Shown: positions 4,291-48,714 of the stretch, piece after piece
How positions within the stretch are numbered: position 1 is the stretch's first letter
Layout of the letters: each line of letters starts with the position of its first letter
From: an uncultured Gammaproteobacteria bacterium
GTDB lineage: Bacteria > Patescibacteriota > Patescibacteriia > VMEV01 > CAZAJQ01
Reading direction: 5' to 3'
Assembly (NCBI GenBank): GCA_964485795.1
Contig: CAZAJQ010000001.1
Span: 142,014 to 206,013 of the forward strand
DNA length: 64,000 nt
Made by a program: the position numbers and the translations under genes
The notes under the pieces: generated by a model
The model's database searches: none
What the model saw: the letters and a program-made list of their open reading frames with translations, nothing else
Told to the model about the DNA's origin: nothing

Positions 4291-4755
4291 TTATCGAATG
4301 ATGCTGATCGTTTCTCCGAGTTCGGCACCGCTCGCCGAGATGGTGATCTGACTCGTCGTGGCGTTTCGAACGATCGAATATTTGCTGTCATAATCGGTCG
4401 TGGATGTCCAATGCGCACCGGAAACGGACGGATCAAACGGCATGGTGGAAATGTAGTTTGGCACCAAACAAGGCGCAATGTCATACTCGCCCACGGTATT
4501 GGACATATTCGTCGCAGTCGCGGGTATCGCTCCCGCGGCGCAGGTAAATGTCCCGTTGTTGCGCGCTATATTGGCGCTGATGCCGTTTGCGATCGTATTG
4601 AGATGCGATTTTCTTTGCGAATTTCTGGCGTTTGCAAATTGCTGTCCCGGATTGATCACGGCAATCAGGATACCCGCAAGAATGGCTATCAGCGCAATGA
4701 CGATAAGCACTTCGATAAGCGTAAACCCGCGCCGAAACGATTGATAATGATGCAT
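4291..4755 (-). CDS. type IV pilin / pseudopilin (prepilin-type N-terminal cleavage/methylation domain)
   Basis: N-terminus MHHYQSFRRGFTLIEVLIVIALIAILAGI, i.e. a G|FTLIE class III signal with E at +5 and a hydrophobic helix. It is divergent from the pilus ATPase operon. Confidence 0.8.
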   Translation of the reverse strand: MHHYQSFRRGFTLIEVLIVIALIAILAGILIAVINPGQQFANARNSQRKSHLNTIANGISANIARNNGTFTCAAGAIPATATNMSNTVGEYDIAPCLVPNYISTMPFDPSVSGAHWTSTTDYDSKYSIVRNATTSQITISASGAELGETISIIR

Positions 4756-4834: not shown

Positions 4835-6118
4835 ATGGCCACAGCCGAAGAAAAAAATTATCTTGAAGAAATGCTTCGCCAGCAAATCTTGGCCAATGCC
4901 GAAAAATCTTCCGCGATAGCGGATATCGGTGCCATTCGATCTCTGACCGGATCGACTCCCGTCACGGAAATCGTGGATAGGCTCATTGAAACCGCAATGA
5001 AAGTACGGGTTTCGGACATTCATTTCGATCCCACGGAATACCACCTCATCATACGATATCGTATCGATGGAATTCTTTATGATGTTTTATTGTTGCCGGT
5101 GAGACTTCTGGTGGTGATCATCACACGATTGAAAGTTCTCGCGAATTTGAGAACCGATGAACACGCTTCGGCTCAAGACGGACGCATCCAGAGGCAATTC
5201 GGCACGCAAACCATCGATATTCGTCTATCGATCATGCCGGCCTACTACGGTGAAAATGCGGTCATGCGCCTTCTCGTATCCGGAGCGCAATCTTTGAAAC
5301 TTCTGGATCTCGGATTTCGAGAGCAAGACATGGAAAAAATCAACGCGGCGATTCGTCTGCCCTACGGAATGATCCTCACCACAGGACCGACCGGATCCGG
5401 GAAAACCACCACGCTCTACGCCATGATAAATGAAATCAACAAGCGAGAAATGTCCATCATCACGATCGAAGACCCCATCGAATTTTCCATACCGGGAATC
5501 ACGCAAATCCCGGTAAACGTGCAAACCGGACTCACCTTTGCGAAAGGACTTCGCTCGATAGTGCGGCAAGATCCCGACATCATGATGGTCGGAGAAATTC
5601 GCGATTCGGAAACGGCCGGAATCGCGGTCAACTCGGCGATGACCGGACATCTCGTGCTCTCCACTTTGCATACCAATGACGCCGCGGTTACCCTGCCGCG
5701 ATTGCTTGATATGGAAGTCGAAGCTTTTTTGATCGCATCGACCGTGAATCTCGCCATCGGACAAAGACTGGTTCGCAAACTGTGCCAATCGTGCAAAGCG
5801 CCCCATGAAGTGACAAATCCCGAAAAACTCGCTTTCGCTTCTTTTGTGGACGAAAAATGGCTGGACGCTCACAAATTTCACGAACCCGTCGGATGCAACG
5901 ATTGCAACAATAAAGGCTATAAAGGACGCGTGGGGATTTTTGAAATCATGCCCATGAGCGAAAAGATCCGCCATGCCATCATGCAAAACAGCAATGCGCA
6001 GCTCATACGAAGCATCGCCATAGAAGAAGGGATGACCACCATGCTGCAAGACGGTTTGGTAAAAGCCGCGTCCGGAATCACCAGCCTGCAGGAAATTCTC
6101 CGCGTATTTCATGAATAA
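4835..6118 (+). CDS. type IV pilus / competence pseudopilus assembly ATPase (PilB/GspE/ComGA family, short form)
   Basis: Walker A GPTGSGKTT, Asp/His boxes, and a C-terminal tetracysteine CQSC...CNDC. At 427 aa it lacks the long N-terminal GspE domain, as ComGA-type ATPases do. Confidence 0.9.
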   Translation: MATAEEKNYLEEMLRQQILANAEKSSAIADIGAIRSLTGSTPVTEIVDRLIETAMKVRVSDIHFDPTEYHLIIRYRIDGILYDVLLLPVRLLVVIITRLKVLANLRTDEHASAQDGRIQRQFGTQTIDIRLSIMPAYYGENAVMRLLVSGAQSLKLLDLGFREQDMEKINAAIRLPYGMILTTGPTGSGKTTTLYAMINEINKREMSIITIEDPIEFSIPGITQIPVNVQTGLTFAKGLRSIVRQDPDIMMVGEIRDSETAGIAVNSAMTGHLVLSTLHTNDAAVTLPRLLDMEVEAFLIASTVNLAIGQRLVRKLCQSCKAPHEVTNPEKLAFASFVDEKWLDAHKFHEPVGCNDCNNKGYKGRVGIFEIMPMSEKIRHAIMQNSNAQLIRSIAIEEGMTTMLQDGLVKAASGITSLQEILRVFHE

Positions 6119-7273: not shown

Positions 7274-7738
7274 ATGCGCATCCGACCAAGGGAAAAGGGA
7301 TTTACCCTCATGGAAATGATCATCGGACTTGCTCTCATTCTTCTCACGCTCACGGGAATCGTGGCGATAAGCAACACTTACCTCATCAATCAACAGCTCG
7401 ACAATGCGGCTGAAAGCGCGCTTGAAGAAATACGACGTGCGCAGGGAGATGCGATAGCCGCCACCGGAGATTCCGGTCACGGAATAAAAATCATCGGATC
7501 GACGCTCATTCGTTTTCGAGGAAATTCGTTCGCTACCAGAAACGCGATTTATGACGTCGATTCGACGTTTCCGCCATTTCTCAGCTTTGGCGGAAACGAT
7601 GAAATCATTTTTCCGAAATTAAGCCCGGCCCCTGTCGCCGCAGCTTCCCTCACAATCTCAAACAACATTGAGCTATACACCATTTCAACATCTCTCTATG
7701 GAAATATTTCGCTCTCAAGAGGGTCAGTCGCTCCTTGA
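7274..7738 (+). CDS. prepilin-type pseudopilin (ComGC-like)
   Basis: N-terminus MRIRPREKGFTLMEMIIGLALILLTL, i.e. G|FTLME followed by a hydrophobic helix. Confidence 0.7.
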   Translation: MRIRPREKGFTLMEMIIGLALILLTLTGIVAISNTYLINQQLDNAAESALEEIRRAQGDAIAATGDSGHGIKIIGSTLIRFRGNSFATRNAIYDVDSTFPPFLSFGGNDEIIFPKLSPAPVAAASLTISNNIELYTISTSLYGNISLSRGSVAP

Positions 7739-9080
7739 GGTTTTGATAGCTCTCACCATCATCGTCATCATCATGAGCGGTATTTTCCCGTTGCTGGGGA
7801 CGCAAATACTCGGCATCGTCGACAGTCAAGACAGGATCGAAGCCATGTACCTCGCTCGGGAAGGAGTGCAGGCCAGCCGCGCCATACACAGTCGATCGTT
7901 TCATGAGCTTCTCGACGGCATTCATGGTCTCAGCCTCACGAACGGATCATGGCAATGGTCGGGATCCAGCGATCAATACGACAAATTCACTCGATCCGTC
8001 ACGATCAGCAGCCCCGATCTGGTCACAAAACAAATTTCTTCACAAATTCTCTGGACGGATACCTCGGGGTTGCAGCAAACCCTTGATTTCACCTTTAACG
8101 CTTTATTCACCGACTGGTATCAAATAGACGTTTGGGGCAACTGGACCGATCTGCAGCTTTTGGGGCAAATAGATATAGGAGCGACCGCACAAGGCAATGG
8201 GATCGACACCGACGGCATCACGGCTTTCATCGCGGCAAGCGCGGCAACCGGAAAACCAAAACTCTACAGCTTCAATGTCGCAAACAAATCCGCTCCGGTA
8301 CTGCTGCAATCTTTGGATACCGGAGACTCACTCAACGACGTCGTCATGTACGGCAATTACATTTTTACCGCCGGCACAAAAGACAATGAAGAACTGCGCG
8401 TCTTTGACGCAAGCAATCCCTCATCGATGATACCGGTAACGGTCATCAATCTCTCTTTAGACGCAAAAAAACTTATTATCCAGAACACGTCTCTCTTCGT
8501 GGTGGCGGAGCAGACACTTTTTATCTTTGATATCGGCAATCCCGCCGCCCCGACGCTCCTTTCGTCATCCGCTCTCGCATCAGCCGGCAATGATATCGAT
8601 GTCGTGAATGACAGGGCTTATATCGCGACCGGTGCCGACATATCTGAAGTGCAAATTTTTGACATTTCAAATTTTTCCTCCCCCGTCCTTATCGATTCAA
8701 TCGATATCGTCGGCATCGCCGATGCTCTTTCGCTGAATGCGCAAGAAAACTTCATCATCATCGGCATGGGATCAAACTCGGCGGGAGCTGAGCTTTTTCT
8801 CTATGACATTACGGATCCATTCTCCCCGATTTTGCGGTCAGCCGTGGAACAGTCAAATGATGTAATGGCAATAGAATTTGCGATTCCCTATGTTTTCATA
8901 GGAACCGCGGATGCAAATGAAGAGCTCAAAATCTATGATTTTCGCGACACGCAATCCCCCGTCAAAATCGATTTCATCAATCTTTCGCAGCTGGTAAGAG
9001 ATATGATCATGAAAGACAATACTCTTTACGCGACGGTAAGGAGTCAAGATTCTCTAAAAATTATCGGTCCGTCTTTATGA
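7698..9080 (+). CDS. pilin-like protein with a C-terminal LVIVD-repeat beta-propeller domain (candidate pilus-associated adhesin)
   Basis: Prepilin-like N-terminus MEIFRSQEG|QSLLEVLIALTIIVII. It is followed by at least four LVIVD-type repeats (ELRVFDASNPSS, VQIFDISNFSSP, LFLYDITDPFSP, LKIYDFRDTQSP). Start moved to the internal ATG at 7698; the ORF track starts at 7668 and overlaps the upstream gene. Confidence 0.65.
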   Translation: MEIFRSQEGQSLLEVLIALTIIVIIMSGIFPLLGTQILGIVDSQDRIEAMYLAREGVQASRAIHSRSFHELLDGIHGLSLTNGSWQWSGSSDQYDKFTRSVTISSPDLVTKQISSQILWTDTSGLQQTLDFTFNALFTDWYQIDVWGNWTDLQLLGQIDIGATAQGNGIDTDGITAFIAASAATGKPKLYSFNVANKSAPVLLQSLDTGDSLNDVVMYGNYIFTAGTKDNEELRVFDASNPSSMIPVTVINLSLDAKKLIIQNTSLFVVAEQTLFIFDIGNPAAPTLLSSSALASAGNDIDVVNDRAYIATGADISEVQIFDISNFSSPVLIDSIDIVGIADALSLNAQENFIIIGMGSNSAGAELFLYDITDPFSPILRSAVEQSNDVMAIEFAIPYVFIGTADANEELKIYDFRDTQSPVKIDFINLSQLVRDMIMKDNTLYATVRSQDSLKIIGPSL

Positions 9081-9577
9081 TCTCATCTCCGAGTCAAAAA
9101 GGATTCACGCTCTTGGAATTCATCATCTACACGACGCTGACGACTCTTATCATGGGAATACTCGTGATCATTTCCATTTCGACGCTTCGCTCCCGAGCCT
9201 TATCAAACAACGACCTGATCGTTCAAAGAAACATGACGGTGGCGTTTGAAACGATCATAACAAAAATCGAGAAGGCAAACGCCATCACCGCTCCGACATC
9301 GGGAACCTCGAACACGCTTGAACTCACCGGCGATGATCCGCTCAAGTATCCATCGATTTTCACTTTGAACGCGGGGAAATTGATGCTGTCTGTCGCCGGC
9401 TCCGCGACCGAACCCCTGACATCCGATGACGTTGCGGTTACGGATTTTTCCGTAACAAGAATGAGCGATCCCATAGACGGCGCGCAAATATCCTTGAGCA
9501 TCGAAACGAAAAATCCTCCCACACCCGATCTGTATTCAAAAGAAAATCTCCGGACGACGATAATGCTTTCTTACTGA
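9077..9577 (+). CDS. prepilin-type pseudopilin
   Basis: N-terminus MISSPSQKGFTLLEFIIYTTLTTLIMGIL, i.e. G|FTLLE. The ATGA overlap with the upstream gene suggests translational coupling. Confidence 0.7.
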   Translation: MISSPSQKGFTLLEFIIYTTLTTLIMGILVIISISTLRSRALSNNDLIVQRNMTVAFETIITKIEKANAITAPTSGTSNTLELTGDDPLKYPSIFTLNAGKLMLSVAGSATEPLTSDDVAVTDFSVTRMSDPIDGAQISLSIETKNPPTPDLYSKENLRTTIMLSY

Positions 9578-9578
9578 T

Positions 9579-10046
9579 ATGTCAAAATTTCCTTCACGAA
9601 AAAATCCCACCCCGAAGTTAAGCGAAGCACATACTTCAGGGTTCACCCTAAAGTTAAGCGAAGCGCATACTTCAGGGTTCACCCTCATCGTCGCCGTCAT
9701 CATCATGACGGCCGCGTTCGTATTGATCGTGGTGCTGGGGGCAAAAAGCTTTCGATACACCAGTAGCGTCATCCAAGCTCAGATCGATCAGACGACGACA
9801 AATCTCCTCGCCGAATCATGCGCCCAGAAGGTGCTCCGCATGATCGTGGATAATTCAAATTACCCCGGAAATGAAACAATCACCAATCCCGAAGGAGATT
9901 GCACACTCTACCCGATAGCTCCCGGAGTGCCAGCCGATATCGATATTGAAGCGACAATACGCGATCATACCACGAGATTGCGCGTCACCATCGATTCAAA
10001 AACACCTCCCAATGTCATAAAATGGGAAAAATTGGAAAACTTTTAA
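9579..10046 (+). CDS. pilin-like / small membrane protein whose 5' region is built from a tandem hairpin repeat
   Basis: Its ATG lies 1 nt after the upstream stop. The N-terminal residues KLSEAHTSGFTL KLSEAHTSGFTL are encoded by two tandem copies of the 32 nt hairpin repeat. A hydrophobic helix (IVAVIIMTAAFVLIVVLG) follows but lacks E at +5. An alternative start at ATG 9711 would place the repeats in the intergenic region. Confidence 0.45.
   Translation: MSKFPSRKNPTPKLSEAHTSGFTLKLSEAHTSGFTLIVAVIIMTAAFVLIVVLGAKSFRYTSSVIQAQIDQTTTNLLAESCAQKVLRMIVDNSNYPGNETITNPEGDCTLYPIAPGVPADIDIEATIRDHTTRLRVTIDSKTPPNVIKWEKLENF
9609..9686 (+). repeat. two tandem copies of the 32 nt hairpin repeat CCCTGAAGTTAAGCGAAGCGCATACTTCAGGG (family A)
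   Basis: Near-identical adjacent copies, each able to form a 9 bp stem (CCCTGAAGT/ACTTCAGGG) with a 14 nt loop. The same element recurs at 10727, 20079 and 20521. Confidence 0.8.
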
Positions 10047-10090: not shown

Positions 10091-10630
10091 TTGTTCAAAT
10101 CCGCTCTTTGTGATTTAATGATTGATATGGAATCATCGCCATCGTTTGAAACCCAGCTCAAGGGAAAACAACTTCTATCATGGTCATTTCCCGAATATGA
10201 AACGCACGAAAGATCGGATCTTTGGTATATTTTTTTTGGCGTCATCGTCGCTTTTCTCATCATTTACTCGATCGTCAAGTTTAATTGTCTCTTTGCCGTC
10301 ATCGTTATCCTCATCGCCTTCATTCTTTTTATCCAAAACGCCCGAAAATCCGGCACGATTCATTTTTCCGTATATCAGACCGGCATACAACTGGAAGACA
10401 ATTTCCATACATACAAAGAATTTTCTCACTTCTGGATAGCCTTCAATCCTCCGGTCGTAAAACAGCTTTATCTTCGGAAAAAAGGATTTTTCGGTCAAAC
10501 ACTTTCCATTCCCCTGATGGATCACAATATCATGAAAATCAGGAAAATTTTGGAAAAAAATATTCCCGAAAACGTGAATATGGAAAATGAAAGCATTTCA
10601 GACTTTTTGAGCCGAATTTTAAAAATTTGA
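10091..10630 (+). CDS. hypothetical membrane protein (two transmembrane helices)
   Basis: ORF with two hydrophobic helices (FFGVIVAFLIIYSIV and LFAVIVILIAFILFI). The true start may be the internal ATG near 10132. Confidence 0.4.
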   Translation: MFKSALCDLMIDMESSPSFETQLKGKQLLSWSFPEYETHERSDLWYIFFGVIVAFLIIYSIVKFNCLFAVIVILIAFILFIQNARKSGTIHFSVYQTGIQLEDNFHTYKEFSHFWIAFNPPVVKQLYLRKKGFFGQTLSIPLMDHNIMKIRKILEKNIPENVNMENESISDFLSRILKI

Positions 10631-38166: not shown

Positions 38167-40065
38167 CTATTTCTCTTTCTCGAGAGCTTTCGCAAACTCC
38201 GCTTTTGCGTCTTCGAGCTCGAGGATTTGTCTCGGATCGGAGGTGATGATCTGATCTTCGGTGTAAGAAGCGACGATCTTAATGGCCGCGTGTTTGGCAC
38301 CCGCAAAGAAAATGCCTTCGCCCACACCGCCTTCAAGGAGCAAGTACTTTTCCCCTTCGGTGAGTAAAAAAGTTTTTTGCACGAGGTCTATGGCCGCCGG
38401 AGACTGCTTGAGCAAAAGCTGCAGGGAGGAATTATTGAGGATCGCCTGTCCGTACGGTGAAGAAAGAAAATCATTGACGTCTTGGGTGATGGTCGTCACG
38501 CCAAGATAGTATTTTCTGCAGCGCTTCACCAGCGCATAGATGAATTTCGCGGAATCCTCCCGCTGCATCAGCCACCAAGCTTCGTCGATCACGAGAATGC
38601 GTTTTTTCAGCTCGGAACGGACCACATTCCAGATGTAATTGACGATCGTGTAAATGGCGATAGGGCGAAGCTCGTCTTCAAGATCGCGCACGGAAAACAC
38701 CACAAGCTGATTTCTCATATCCACGTTTGTCGGACTATTGAACAGCCCCGAAAACGTGCCTTGCGTGAATTTGCGCAGCCGCATGGCCAAGTCTTCGCCT
38801 CCGGCCATACCTTCGAGAACGTCTTCAAAATCCTGCATCAGCGGCGCTTCGACACGGCTCAAGTCCGAATCCGCGGTGATATCTTTTTTCGCGTACGTTT
38901 CAAGCAAAGCCCGATCCACGATGGAGTCATCCTTATGCGAAAGATGCCCGATCATGAGGCGAACCAAGCCTTTCAAAGTGATGACCGCCGAGCGAATGAT
39001 GTCCGATGTCTTGACTTCGGATCCGATGGGACGAGGCAGATCAAAAGGATTGATTTTCGCTTCGGAAGCGAGGGAAATATTGATATAGGTGCCGCCCACC
39101 GCATCGGAAAGGTGCTTGTACTCCATCTCCGGATCGATGATGATGATTTCCACGCCCATCATGAGCGAACGCAACACTTCGAGCTTGATCGCATAGCTTT
39201 TTCCGGCTCCGGATGTGGCGAAAATGGAAAAATTGGCGTTTTGCAATGAAAAACGATCAAAAAGAATTAAGCTGTTGTTATGCCGATTGATGCCGTACAA
39301 AATGCCGTTATCGGAAGTGAGCTCCGAAGAAATGAAAGGAAACGAGGATGCGCATGGGGATGAATTCATGTTAAACGACACCATGAGCTCATCGTTGCCC
39401 AAAGGCAAGGTGGAATTGAACCCTTGCTCGGCTTGATAGAGCACCCTTCGCGAATAAATCAATTTGGAACCGAAAACCAGCTCGATGTCATTGGAAATTT
39501 TATCGAGTTCTTCTTTATTTTCCGCATAGGCGGTGACATAAAGAGCGAATTGAAAAAACTTTTCCACGCCCTGCGTCAGACGATCGCGCAATTCCTCGAT
39601 ATCGCGCAAGGCCGTCTCTCGTATCGGGTCTCGGGGAGCGCCTTTTTCGGAATCGCTGATGATCTGCGCTTCGACATAGCCGACTTTTTTTTGCAGCTGT
39701 TTGAGCACGATATGCGCCGGAACCGGATAAAAAAACATGGCGATATCAAGCGTCACGCTCATATTGATCACCGGCGCAAACCAGCCCACGGATATATAGC
39801 GCGGATAGGTGACAACAAAATGGGTACGGACGATTTTCGTGCCCAAAACCACATGATCGGGATTCACTTTGAACGCCGCGGGCGATATCAAATCGCGCAC
39901 CGAAATGGCGCCCCTGCGATACACTCGTTCGGCTTCGACGATTTCCTTTTGACGATTTTGCTCGGCCAGCTTTGCGATACGAGTCGCTTCTTTTTCCGAA
40001 ACGGACACCTCGTCTTTCAGAGGAGAAACGTCTATGGGCGAGATGGATTGTGGGGTGATGGGCAT
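38167..40065 (-). CDS. VirB4/TrbE/PrgJ-family type IV secretion ATPase (C-terminal approximately 630 aa: domain linker plus ATPase)
   Basis: Walker A FATSGAGKSYAIK, Walker B LVIDEAWWLM, and conserved VirB4 regions (VTYPRYISVGWFAPVINM, IIIDPEMEY). Confidence 0.75.
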   Translation of the reverse strand: MPITPQSISPIDVSPLKDEVSVSEKEATRIAKLAEQNRQKEIVEAERVYRRGAISVRDLISPAAFKVNPDHVVLGTKIVRTHFVVTYPRYISVGWFAPVINMSVTLDIAMFFYPVPAHIVLKQLQKKVGYVEAQIISDSEKGAPRDPIRETALRDIEELRDRLTQGVEKFFQFALYVTAYAENKEELDKISNDIELVFGSKLIYSRRVLYQAEQGFNSTLPLGNDELMVSFNMNSSPCASSFPFISSELTSDNGILYGINRHNNSLILFDRFSLQNANFSIFATSGAGKSYAIKLEVLRSLMMGVEIIIIDPEMEYKHLSDAVGGTYINISLASEAKINPFDLPRPIGSEVKTSDIIRSAVITLKGLVRLMIGHLSHKDDSIVDRALLETYAKKDITADSDLSRVEAPLMQDFEDVLEGMAGGEDLAMRLRKFTQGTFSGLFNSPTNVDMRNQLVVFSVRDLEDELRPIAIYTIVNYIWNVVRSELKKRILVIDEAWWLMQREDSAKFIYALVKRCRKYYLGVTTITQDVNDFLSSPYGQAILNNSSLQLLLKQSPAAIDLVQKTFLLTEGEKYLLLEGGVGEGIFFAGAKHAAIKIVASYTEDQIITSDPRQILELEDAKAEFAKALEKEK

Positions 40066-40148: not shown

Positions 40149-40826
40149 TCAGTCGACTTGAATTTTGCTGGTCTCAACGAGTTTTTGATTTTGAGAAACG
40201 ACGGGATTGTAACTATTATAGTACAATTCGATGAGATTTTGTGTATTGAGCATTACCGAATTCAGCCCCATGCTGTTCAGCCCCTGTCGGATAAGGCTGA
40301 CCCGCTGCATGAGATCTTTTTTGCGAGAGACGAAACGTTTTCGGTCGAGCGTCACGGCCGCAGCCGGTCGCAAACTTTCGGACAATCGGGAAAAAAATCC
40401 CTTTTGTTTGTTTGACAGCGGATCATAGGGAACGGTGAGGTAAAATTTTTTGCTCATGATTTGCCCCAAGGAAACCAGCTCCTGGATATATTGACGATAT
40501 TCGATGGTCTGCATGCGCAGAAGCTCGTTGGTTTGCTCCTTTTCCATTGATTTGAGACGCTCGATGTAATTGTCGATGTTGAGCTTGCGTGATTGCACCA
40601 CGATCTGTATGGGAAATTCAAAGGAATTGATGAAACTCACATACGAAGAAATCACGGCGTTTTGTTCGTCTTCGGACTTCAGAGCAAAATTTATGGACGA
40701 TACCAAAAGCACGGCGCGCAAAGTGCCGTCATTGAGCACCACCGCATCGTCACGGATCTCATAAATGTCAAGGTATTTTTGCGTGGACTGACGGGTGATT
40801 TTTTTTGCGAGTTTTTTGTTTTGCAT
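40149..40826 (-). CDS. VirB4 N-terminal domain protein (separate ORF)
   Basis: Pattern typical of the VirB4 N-terminal domain (DGTLRAVLLVSSINFALKSEDEQNAVISSYVSFINSFEFPIQIVVQSRKLNIDNYIERL). Its frame differs from the downstream ATPase ORF and it ends 84 nt before that ORF's ATG. Confidence 0.55.
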   Translation of the reverse strand: MQNKKLAKKITRQSTQKYLDIYEIRDDAVVLNDGTLRAVLLVSSINFALKSEDEQNAVISSYVSFINSFEFPIQIVVQSRKLNIDNYIERLKSMEKEQTNELLRMQTIEYRQYIQELVSLGQIMSKKFYLTVPYDPLSNKQKGFFSRLSESLRPAAAVTLDRKRFVSRKKDLMQRVSLIRQGLNSMGLNSVMLNTQNLIELYYNSYNPVVSQNQKLVETSKIQVD

Positions 40827-47280: not shown

Positions 47281-48714
47281 TTATATCAACAAGAAGTAGT
47301 CTAACGGAACTTTGACCACATTGGCGTCATCCAGTAAAGTGAGCGAATTTTTGCAGATCACGACGCCATACTTGGCCGATCCGACTTTCTTCATAGATTT
47401 TCTTACCTGAGTGCCAAGCTTTTCACCCACACCCACTTCAATCGGAATAATGCTCTTCCCTGCGACAGTGAGTATAAAATCCGCGCCGGCTTTTGAGCTG
47501 TCGTAATTCAAAGCACCTCGGCTATTGGCGACGTATTCCCGATACAAGGTCATCGCGACGATATCTTCCATAAGACGGCCTTTCTGTCCCGCGAAAATTT
47601 GCTCATTGCCCGCGATGGAAAGAAATGCCGAACGGAATGCGCTAGACATGAATTGGTAACGAGACGGCTTCCTAACTTTTTTGGCGTTTGAGCCGTATGG
47701 CATCACACGTATGAGCAATTCGGTCTGCTCCAATACTTCAAGAATATTGGAAACGGTGTTGACGCTCGTCTCAAGCGTTTTGGCGAGTTTCTGAATACTC
47801 ACTACGTCAGACTCCGCCAACAAAAACAATACCCTTTTGATATGAATGAGAGTCGAGGCATCAAAACGACCAAGATTTTGTACGTCCTGATTAATTACTT
47901 TGTCCAAAAGCAAAGTGATCGTCTGATAGACACGCGCTTCGTCTTTCATCCGGATGGCGAACGGCAAAGTGCCGATTTTCAAATACTCATCGACATAATT
48001 GCGATCGATAGAAGCCCACGTACTTGCCACAATCGGCTCATGTTTTTTTAGCTTTTCATAAGCATCTCGAGCCGATTCGGCGCCAAATAATGCATCCTTT
48101 ATATTTTGCTTCAACCCCTTCGCAGGCAGTTTTCCATCGCGGATCATTAAAAATTCAGAGAAACTGGTCGGAAAAAGTTTTTGAAAAACGGATCTACGTA
48201 TCACATCAGGGTTGGTCTGCAGAGAAACAGCCGACGAACCACTGCACGCAATAAAAACTCTATTTGACCGGTCATATACAGACTTTAATACCGACGCCCA
48301 CCATGGATCGTATTGCGCTTCGTCTATAAATATAAAAATCGGCTTGGTGAGCTTTTCAAAGCTTTCACCGATTACCTTTTCGTATGCACTCAAGACATCC
48401 TTCAAAGACGAGCCGAGTACATTCACCACTTCATCCAGCGAAACGTAAAGCATTCTCCGATCATCGACGTCTTGGCGATGATTGAAAAAAAGCTGTGCCA
48501 GAATGGTGGTCTTACCGACACCGCGAAGTCCCGGAATTATGATCCAGCGATCTCGAGCGTTTGGGTTATGTAAAAAATCTCGAAAATATTTATCCATTTT
48601 GACATAAATATTCCTTTGCGGATATTTTTTACCCTGCTCATCATGGATGTAGGATTTAAGGCGAAAAGGGGCTTGAACAAGCTGGTTTTGTACATACTTG
48701 AGGATTTCTTCCAT
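47281..48714 (-). CDS. AAA+ ATPase with a C-terminal DUF4143-like domain
   Basis: Walker A PGLRGVGKTT and Walker B IFIDEAQY. The overall architecture matches the widespread AAA_14/DUF4143 ATP-binding proteins. Confidence 0.8.
   Translation of the reverse strand: MEEILKYVQNQLVQAPFRLKSYIHDEQGKKYPQRNIYVKMDKYFRDFLHNPNARDRWIIIPGLRGVGKTTILAQLFFNHRQDVDDRRMLYVSLDEVVNVLGSSLKDVLSAYEKVIGESFEKLTKPIFIFIDEAQYDPWWASVLKSVYDRSNRVFIACSGSSAVSLQTNPDVIRRSVFQKLFPTSFSEFLMIRDGKLPAKGLKQNIKDALFGAESARDAYEKLKKHEPIVASTWASIDRNYVDEYLKIGTLPFAIRMKDEARVYQTITLLLDKVINQDVQNLGRFDASTLIHIKRVLFLLAESDVVSIQKLAKTLETSVNTVSNILEVLEQTELLIRVMPYGSNAKKVRKPSRYQFMSSAFRSAFLSIAGNEQIFAGQKGRLMEDIVAMTLYREYVANSRGALNYDSSKAGADFILTVAGKSIIPIEVGVGEKLGTQVRKSMKKVGSAKYGVVICKNSLTLLDDANVVKVPLDYFLLI

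Follow-up and report, generated by a model that had tools for sequence, protein, structure and literature searches.

Modular pilins were defined by Raynaud et al. (2021, PMC8179133), who argued that they are adhesins exposed at the pilus tip. In S. sanguinis, PilB binds host proteins via a grafted vWA module, and PilC carries a lectin module (PMC8179133). Dataset S1 of the same study also contains architectures that combine IPR012902 (N_methyl) with IPR013211 (at least 30 proteins, with 1 to 13 repeat hits), and an 860-aa protein of Candidatus Falkowbacteria was singled out there for a motif "of unknown function" (PMC8179133); IPR013211 is the LVIVD repeat (PMC10210494). In Nanosynbacter lyticus TM7x (Saccharibacteria), the minor pilin PilX2 has a heptabladed RCC1-type propeller; deletion of pilX2 lowered the share of host cells bound from 10.6% to 4.6%, and competition also needs PilX2, which is dispensable for filament formation and competence (Grossman et al. 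2024, PMC11623550). How cells of the Patescibacteria (candidate phyla radiation, CPR) find and hold their partners is poorly understood; among their surface machines, type IV pili are the most conserved. Here we present the analysis of one gene (7698-9080, plus strand) in a 64,000-nucleotide stretch of contig CAZAJQ010000001.1 (assembly GCA_964485795.1), which is the whole of the DNA under study and is referred to below as the window. In the gene product, a class III signal and a pilin module precede a seven-bladed beta-propeller of LVIVD repeats, and we regard the protein, with moderate confidence, as a modular minor type IV pilin of an ultrasmall Parcubacteria bacterium (Patescibacteria/CPR) whose adhesive propeller would stand at the tip of the pilus. 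Both modular pilins and Patescibacteria pilus adhesins with a propeller had been described before, and no concept is changed here; what is added is a confident two-domain model, a constant place in the operon, the extent of the family and one carrier pilin with differing cargo.

The gene lies in an open frame (7668-9080) without internal stop, in which the ATG at 7698 yields a protein of 460 aa. This start agrees with the gene call of the NCBI record and is backed by a relative of the same length and 51% identity (P0002), whose leader, MAISSRQEG/QSILE, is equally long (the slash marks the predicted cleavage site here and below). No Shine-Dalgarno-like sequence is obvious upstream of this ATG. 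An identical protein is on record at NCBI, and the window matches contig JACQLO010000002.1 of assembly GCA_016204025.1; that contig (106,474 bp) would end near window position 48,703. The frame is colinear with the full-length relatives with which it was compared. Because the homologues are colinear and internal stops are absent, two adjacent genes or a frameshift artefact were ruled out, and the preliminary description of this DNA, which had treated the frame as a single gene of 460 aa, is borne out also by at least 59 clusters (at 50% identity) with the same pilin-plus-propeller layout. Three Pfam families were matched above their curated cut-offs, as that description had proposed to check for the first and the last: LVIVD (PF08309; 38.8 bits, cut-off 20.2, E 6e-10, three stretches), Beta_propel (PF09826; 26.0 bits, cut-off 22.4) and N_methyl (PF07963; 24.2 bits, cut-off 21.2). 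Since these scores exceed the curated cut-offs, the domain matches are more than chance.

The full-length protein was modelled with AlphaFold2 from an alignment of 55 sequences, with a mean predicted local distance difference test (pLDDT) score of 82.6 and values mostly above 90 for residues 148-460. In this model residues 148-460 form 28 strands, i.e., seven four-stranded blades. The sequence contains seven LVIVD-type strands at a spacing of about 44 residues (starts at 188, 232, 273, 317, 365, 409 and 451), which fit the arrangement of 28 strands in seven blades; the four repeats noticed previously ("at least four") are real, and that count was incomplete. When the propeller was compared with the PDB using Foldseek, seven-bladed WD40-type propellers were found, among them beta-TrCP (E 2e-12, TM-score 0.67 on the target), and the earlier expectation that the LVIVD repeats form a propeller is thereby upheld by both the model and the structural match. 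The closest solved relative in a PDB profile search was the LVIVD-related propeller 5HRM, the phosphotriesterase of Sphingobium (Sb-PTE), with an E value of 2.7e-16, and a sequence search of the PDB with the whole protein yielded nothing below E 0.5.

The propeller is acidic, with an isoelectric point (pI) of 4.05 and 39 Asp plus Glu residues versus 16 Lys plus Arg, and the same trend was seen in 21 of 23 single-propeller relatives. This acidity disfavours direct binding of DNA, which the preliminary description had offered as one possible function. Across 24 single-propeller members of the family, conservation is concentrated in the pilin module, in the junction between the modules and in the last strand (S449, D451, L453, I455 and I456); little else in the propeller is conserved except the structural LVIVD pattern, and the loops vary. 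Such variable loops fit a scaffold and are what a diversifying binding module would be expected to show.

The N-terminus reads MEIFRSQEG/QSLLEVLIALTIIVIIMSGIF, with predicted cleavage between Gly9 and Gln-Ser-Leu-Leu-Glu and a Glu at position +5. Together with the N_methyl match this is a canonical class III signal, as was recognised at the outset, and the form G/QS(L/I)(L/I/V)E recurs in many members of the family. The full-length run predicted residues 1-147 only poorly, and relatives of the pilin module were used for a second AlphaFold2 run on this part (25 sequences). The resulting model (pLDDT 87.5) has the pilin "lollipop" fold, with a helix at residues 12-66 followed by strands at 74-81, 84-88, 97-104, 110-120 and 126-130. 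The two separately predicted domains are joined at residues ~134-148, and W140, G147 and W149 of this junction belong to the most conserved positions among the 24 single-propeller members. The fusion of a pilin N-terminus to an LVIVD propeller, as originally described, is supported by two confident structure predictions and by a conserved operon context.

The propeller pilin is encoded by the second of four minor-pilin genes, which lie downstream of genes for a PilB/GspE-type assembly ATPase and a PilC/GspF-type platform protein (Table 1). It had been counted as the third pilin-like gene, which holds only if the divergently oriented gene of the putative major pilin (4291-4755, minus strand) is included. 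The gene overlaps the end of the minor pilin 1 gene by 41 nt (7698-7738), which suggests that the two may be translationally coupled, and the start of the minor pilin 3 gene overlaps its stop codon. Overlaps of the first kind were also observed at the locus of the 51%-identical relative (L004; 41 nt, 5864-5904) and at another related locus (L005; 23 nt, 8001-8023). Comparison with related Patescibacteria loci using phmmer showed the same arrangement, in which T2SSE and T2SSF are followed by minor pilin 1, the propeller pilin and minor pilins 3 and 4, in 12 of 13 loci, including L004, L005, L075, L073, L024, L063, L052, L029, L076 and L017; the loci of P0002 and P0056 have it. Homologues of minor pilin 1 were found at the equivalent position in 12 of the 13 loci and same-position homologues of minor pilin 3 in ten related loci, and a pilin homologous to the putative major pilin adjoins the same operon in four (L004, L063, L017 and L073). 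An Uhrbacteria locus (L058, 859-4966) is the exception to the common order; its propeller pilin directly follows the platform gene and precedes minor pilin 1.

The best NCBIfam matches of the four minor pilins are, in order, GspH, ComGE/GspI, ComGF and ComGG, all far below the cut-offs; this sequence of weak matches would agree with the canonical set of four core minor pilins. The ATPase scored 500 bits against PilB, 490 against GspE and 243 against ComGA (cut-off 300), and the platform protein 274 against GspF, 239 against PilC and 145 against ComGB (cut-off 240), every one of these matches being below its cut-off. As PilB/GspE and GspF/PilC outscore ComGA and ComGB, the label "comG-like operon" of the preliminary description lacks specific support. 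A ComG competence pilus operon was considered and is not supported: ComGA and ComGB are below their cut-offs, and the major pilin gene is located upstream on the opposite strand instead of being the first among the pilins.

Full-length relatives were few in word-seeded searches (P0002, with 51% identity and 460 aa, P0003, P0031 and P0008/P0056). A profile search of 1.84 billion representative sequences (clusters at 50% identity) was more productive, with 59 of the best 150 matches combining a class III signal with LVIVD propellers. Among these best 150, the lengths of the proteins of the pilin plus LVIVD type group at about 460-490 aa, for those with a single propeller, and at about 790-1040 and 1230-2000 aa. 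The search shows that the predicted design is not rare; it appears as a sizeable, syntenic family with at least 59 clusters at 50% identity.

When the pilin module was used as a profile, 20 relatives were retrieved, mostly bare Patescibacteria pilins of 100-200 aa without an extra domain; one of them, with 171 aa, occupies the equivalent operon slot in a related locus (L008). The bare relatives share the strong motif E-A-V-R-S-I-R-D-x-x-W...G-T-H-G-L, from which the window copy has diverged. When the GTDB species genomes were scanned with a degenerate DNA pattern for EAVRSIRDxxW, 74 places matched, 71 of which are open reading frames (ORFs) with a class III signal and a length of 58-1431 aa. 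Nearly all of the 71 come from records with Patescibacteria titles (Saccharibacteria, Paceibacteria, Uhrbacteria, Gracilibacteria, Peribacteria and others). A propeller homologous to that of the window is present in 11 of them, and others carry Laminin_G_3 plus DUF2341, PSII_BNR-type domains or nothing in Pfam beyond N_methyl. Because carrier pilins occur both bare (the majority, with 130-220 aa) and with different loads (one or more LVIVD propellers, BNR-type propellers or ConA-like lectin domains), the propeller is, judging from these predicted domains, one among various modules that have been joined to a single conserved, Patescibacteria-wide carrier minor pilin.

Individual cases among the carrier pilins include a cargo of Laminin_G_3 plus DUF2341 (L025, 3921-7037), PSII_BNR/Ycf48-like propellers (L048, 4588-7608; L082, 2170-6006; L081, 1316-4252; L011, 5586-8000) and a protein of 1431 aa without Pfam match (L050, 3074-7366). 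Eleven GTDB records titled 'uncultured Gammaproteobacteria' (third party annotation metagenome-assembled genomes) also contain a Patescibacteria-type carrier pilin (L009, L010, L024, L025, L035, L052, L054, L062, L064, L079 and L082), and the three that were checked (L024, L035 and L052) have the whole Patescibacteria-type operon. These titles are probably wrong.

Compared with the modular pilins of Raynaud et al. (PMC8179133), the window protein has the same layout, with a class III signal and a small pilin module that a short linker connects to a bulky module without specificity for pili. It also agrees with the definition in that it has two domains, the LVIVD family is mostly non-pilin, and bare versions of the pilin module exist. 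The LVIVD pilins of that study were counted only, without structure, operon position or function, and PilB and PilC of S. sanguinis are from a Firmicute and carry other modules. The similarity to PilX2 of TM7x, which was compared by its description, is that both are minor pilins with a seven-bladed propeller and candidate tip adhesins. They differ in that PilX2 has a propeller of the RCC1 type and no predicted PilD-type signal, whereas the window protein has LVIVD repeats and the canonical G/QSLLE; Pfam matches to RCC1 repeats were absent from the window protein at E values up to 1. PilY1/PilC of type IVa pili likewise place a propeller at the tip, in company with the four core minor pilins; PilY1, however, is a non-pilin that docks onto the minor pilins, whereas the propeller described here is covalently fused to one of them. 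Membership in PilY1/PilC was rejected, as no family match was obtained in Pfam at E up to 1 and the window protein is itself a pilin.

With the sets GspH-I-J-K, FimU-PilV-W-X and ComGD-E-F-G, the operon shares four consecutive minor-pilin genes, the last of which encodes a product without Glu5. The large minor pilin of the window is the second of the four, whereas in the core minor-pilin systems the large member is the fourth (GspK/PilX). The repeat family and the seven-bladed propeller are common to the LVIVD cell-surface proteins (Adindla et al. 2004, PMC2447325), the choice-of-anchor B proteins and Sb-PTE. Typical LVIVD proteins have 400-1200 aa and Sec signals, lipoprotein anchors or sorting domains of the type IX secretion system, in contrast to the class III signal found here; choice-of-anchor B (TIGR04312) was tried and rejected (43.9 bits, cut-off 100). 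By its predicted domains the window protein is a member of the catalogued pilin plus LVIVD architecture, outside the PilY1/PilC, choice-of-anchor B, ComG and RCC1 families.

Under the favoured reading, that of a tip-displayed adhesin, a prepilin peptidase would remove the nine-residue leader after Gly9, as predicted from the signal. The alpha-1 helix with Glu at +5 would then let the pilin module (residues 10-147) join the three other minor pilins of the operon, and the four may form a priming complex with which the PilB/PilC machine starts to assemble the pilus and which ends at the distal tip of the filament. The propeller (residues 148-460), held on the short conserved junction, would be too bulky for the body of the filament and is expected at the tip for this reason. 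There it could bind to the surface of a partner cell or of a particle, with a glycan or a protein, rather than DNA, as the probable ligand. The role of candidate pilus tip adhesin, which the preliminary description had put forward, fits the concept of modular pilins (PMC8179133) and the role that experiments support for PilX2 (PMC11623550); adhesion and tip location are predictions. Propeller pilins would be concrete candidates for host-specificity determinants, and the soluble propeller (residues 148-460) could be produced for ligand screening.

A broader proposal, which we put forward only tentatively and consider rather doubtful, is that the window protein represents one allele of a Patescibacteria-wide 'socket' pilin, a universal carrier whose recognition modules would be swapped between lineages; swapping at this one locus would set the host or substrate range of these ultrasmall episymbionts, and the LVIVD propeller would be a host-recognition lectin. 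The proposed marks of such a socket would be its place as second core minor pilin, the E-A-V-R-S-I-R-D-x-x-W...G-T-H-G-L motif and a G/QS-L-x-E signal, and its cargo would comprise one to several LVIVD propellers, BNR/Ycf48-like propellers, ConA-like lectins and domains without family.

Several results weigh against a tip-displayed adhesin. The closest solved relative of the propeller, 5HRM, is an enzyme. The model of the pilin module had no significant match in the PDB with Foldseek (best E 0.55; EpsI, 2RET_C, E 1.1), neither to GspI/EpsI nor to PilV, and its profile gave only a weak match to PilA (6XXD, E 0.025) in the PDB; in the lack of a significant Foldseek match, it is the signal, the predicted fold and the gene context that identify the module as a pilin. 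Likewise, the putative assignment of the module to the GspI/PilV/ComGE-like class follows from gene order and from hidden Markov model matches below threshold (ComGE, 27.3 bits, cut-off 49; GspI, 13.6 bits, cut-off 44). Residues 136-141 of the junction have pLDDT values below 50 in the full-length model, which bears on the orientation of the two modules. Finally, the prepilin peptidase motif G-G-G-D-x-K was absent from all six frames of the window (regular expression search), no second ATPase and no PilM was detected there by phmmer with PilB, PilC and two PilM proteins, and no PilT gene was found in the window; in the absence of these genes, processing and retraction cannot be tied to the locus.

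The same absence of PilT, PilM and PilD from the window would suit a surface protein outside an extended pilus, whose class III N-terminus serves only for export and for anchoring in a short pseudopilus or at the membrane (cf. the archaeal bindosome and the pseudopili of type II secretion systems) and whose propeller stands at the cell surface. The ATPase, which is truncated relative to PilB, and the GspE/GspF and GspH/GspI models, which score about equal to the pilus models, point in this direction as well. We nevertheless consider this explanation unlikely, since a major-pilin gene adjoins the operon here and in related loci, a set of four minor pilins encoded in a conserved order is characteristic of a complex that primes a filament, PilM is encoded beside the same genes in two related loci (L005 and L007), and visible type IV pili are made by Patescibacteria (PMC11623550).

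Alternatively, the propeller could be an assembly or regulation cap without a ligand of its own, which stabilises the priming complex and counters retraction in the manner of the C-terminal propeller of PilY1/PilC; PilY1/PilC has a propeller associated with the minor-pilin tip complex and is required for pilus biogenesis (PMC8179133). The high conservation of the junction and of the last propeller strand would suit such a role, which we regard as quite unlikely. Most relatives of the carrier pilin are bare or have unrelated modules (lectin-like, BNR), so that, across the family, assembly does not depend on the propeller. Filaments of TM7x still form without PilX2 (PMC11623550), and a PilY1/PilC match is lacking in Pfam.

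The relationship to Sb-PTE raises the question of a catalytic LVIVD propeller, displayed on the pilus or the cell surface, which would attack the partner envelope as a metallo-hydrolase similar to the Sphingobium phosphotriesterase or as a glycan-degrading enzyme. The best PDB profile match is indeed a haloalkylphosphorus hydrolase (5HRM/5IOJ, E 2.7e-16), which is also among the Foldseek matches. The metal centre of Sb-PTE is binuclear, with His and Glu as ligands; the propeller contains no His and no Cys, so that a comparable His-ligated centre is excluded, and a hydrolase of this kind was accordingly rejected despite the related fold. Modular pilins with peptidase modules exist (PMC8179133), but the Pfam and NCBIfam scans revealed no catalytic family. 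As no active-site-like residues are conserved beyond the LVIVD motif and the terminal strand in the 24 single-propeller members, an enzymatic function appears very improbable.

Bacteria of the CPR are naturally competent and have no nucleotide synthesis of their own. It is nonetheless highly improbable that the propeller captures extracellular DNA as the receptor of a competence (Com-type) pilus that passes it to a ComEC-type channel, because, notwithstanding the comG-operon-like order of the genes for the ATPase, the platform protein and several small pilins, the weak ComGE, ComGF and ComGG matches of minor pilins 2 to 4 and the binding of DNA by some modular pilins, e.g. ComZ (PMC8179133), the propeller is strongly acidic, as are nearly all of its relatives, the ATPase and platform proteins score better against PilB/GspE and GspF/PilC with all ComG matches below cut-off, and TM7x mutants of the second type IV pilus system T4P-2 (pilA2, pilX2 and pilB2) kept wild-type competence (PMC11623550).

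Table 1. Positions of the propeller pilin, its parts and the neighbouring pilus genes in the window
Feature	Position	Strand	Basis and remarks
Modular minor pilin, pilin module plus seven-bladed LVIVD beta-propeller	7698..9080	+	460 aa plus stop; ORF, Pfam, AlphaFold2, family
Class III leader peptide MEIFRSQEG, residues 1-9	7698..7724	+	Read from sequence; predicted cleavage after Gly9
Pilin module, residues 10-147	7725..8138	+	Hydrophobic N-terminal alpha-1 part with Glu +5, helix 12-66, five-stranded sheet
Pilin-propeller junction TDWYQIDVWGNW, residues 138-149	8109..8144	+	Alignment of 24 single-propeller members
Seven-bladed LVIVD beta-propeller, residues 148-460	8139..9077	+	AlphaFold2, Foldseek, PDB profile match, composition
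LVIVD-type motif 1, KLYSFNVANKSAP, residues 188-200	8259..8297	+	Sequence
LVIVD-type motif 2, ELRVFDASNPSSM, residues 232-244	8391..8429	+	Sequence
LVIVD-type motif 3, TLFIFDIGNPAAP, residues 273-285	8514..8552	+	Sequence; overlooked in the preliminary description
LVIVD-type motif 4, EVQIFDISNFSSP, residues 317-329	8646..8684	+	Sequence
LVIVD-type motif 5, ELFLYDITDPFSP, residues 365-377	8790..8828	+	Sequence
LVIVD-type motif 6, ELKIYDFRDTQSP, residues 409-421	8922..8960	+	Sequence
Truncated seventh motif (C-terminus), DSLKIIGPSL, residues 451-460	9048..9077	+	Best-conserved propeller stretch of the family
Putative major pilin, 154 aa, leader MHHYQSFRRG/FTLIE	4291..4755	-	Pfam N_methyl 33.2 bits (cut-off 21.2), TIGR02532 34 bits
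PilB/GspE-type assembly ATPase, 427 aa	4835..6118	+	Pfam T2SSE 414 bits
PilC/GspF-type platform protein, 362 aa	6127..7215	+	Pfam T2SSF 170 bits, 2 stretches
Minor pilin 1, 154 aa, leader MRIRPREKG/FTLME	7274..7738	+	Pfam N_methyl 26.2 bits; best NCBIfam match weak, GspH 23.8 bits
Minor pilin 3, 166 aa, leader MISSPSQKG/FTLLE	9077..9577	+	Pfam N_methyl 20.6 bits, slightly under cut-off
Minor pilin 4, 155 aa	9579..10046	+	Hydrophobic N-terminus after SG/FTLIVAV, no Glu at +5; weak ComGG_2 and Pilin_N matches; syntenic homologues

The ATPase aligns to positions 159-562 of the PilB profile and is without the N-terminal ~160 residues of canonical PilB; versions of ~560 aa with an MshEN domain were observed in two related Patescibacteria loci (L005 and L007). 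The leader of minor pilin 4 contains a 36-bp tandem duplication (9608-9685; 2.2 copies, 92% match), which reads KLSEAHTSGFTL-KLSEAHTSGFTL-IVAVII and results in two candidate prepilin-peptidase sites. The mature N-terminus of this pilin is without Glu5, as in GspK, ComGG and PilX. The pilin genes are directly followed by a gene (10091-10630, plus strand) for a predicted membrane protein of 179 aa without Pfam or NCBIfam match; it was found only in contigs with an identical propeller pilin, and a phmmer search of 14 related loci gave no match to it. Farther away, two genes on the minus strand resemble those of conjugation or type IV secretion systems, one with matches to DUF87, AAA_10 and TraG P-loop domains (38167-40065) and one TraC-like (40149-40826), and appear to be unrelated to the pilus locus.

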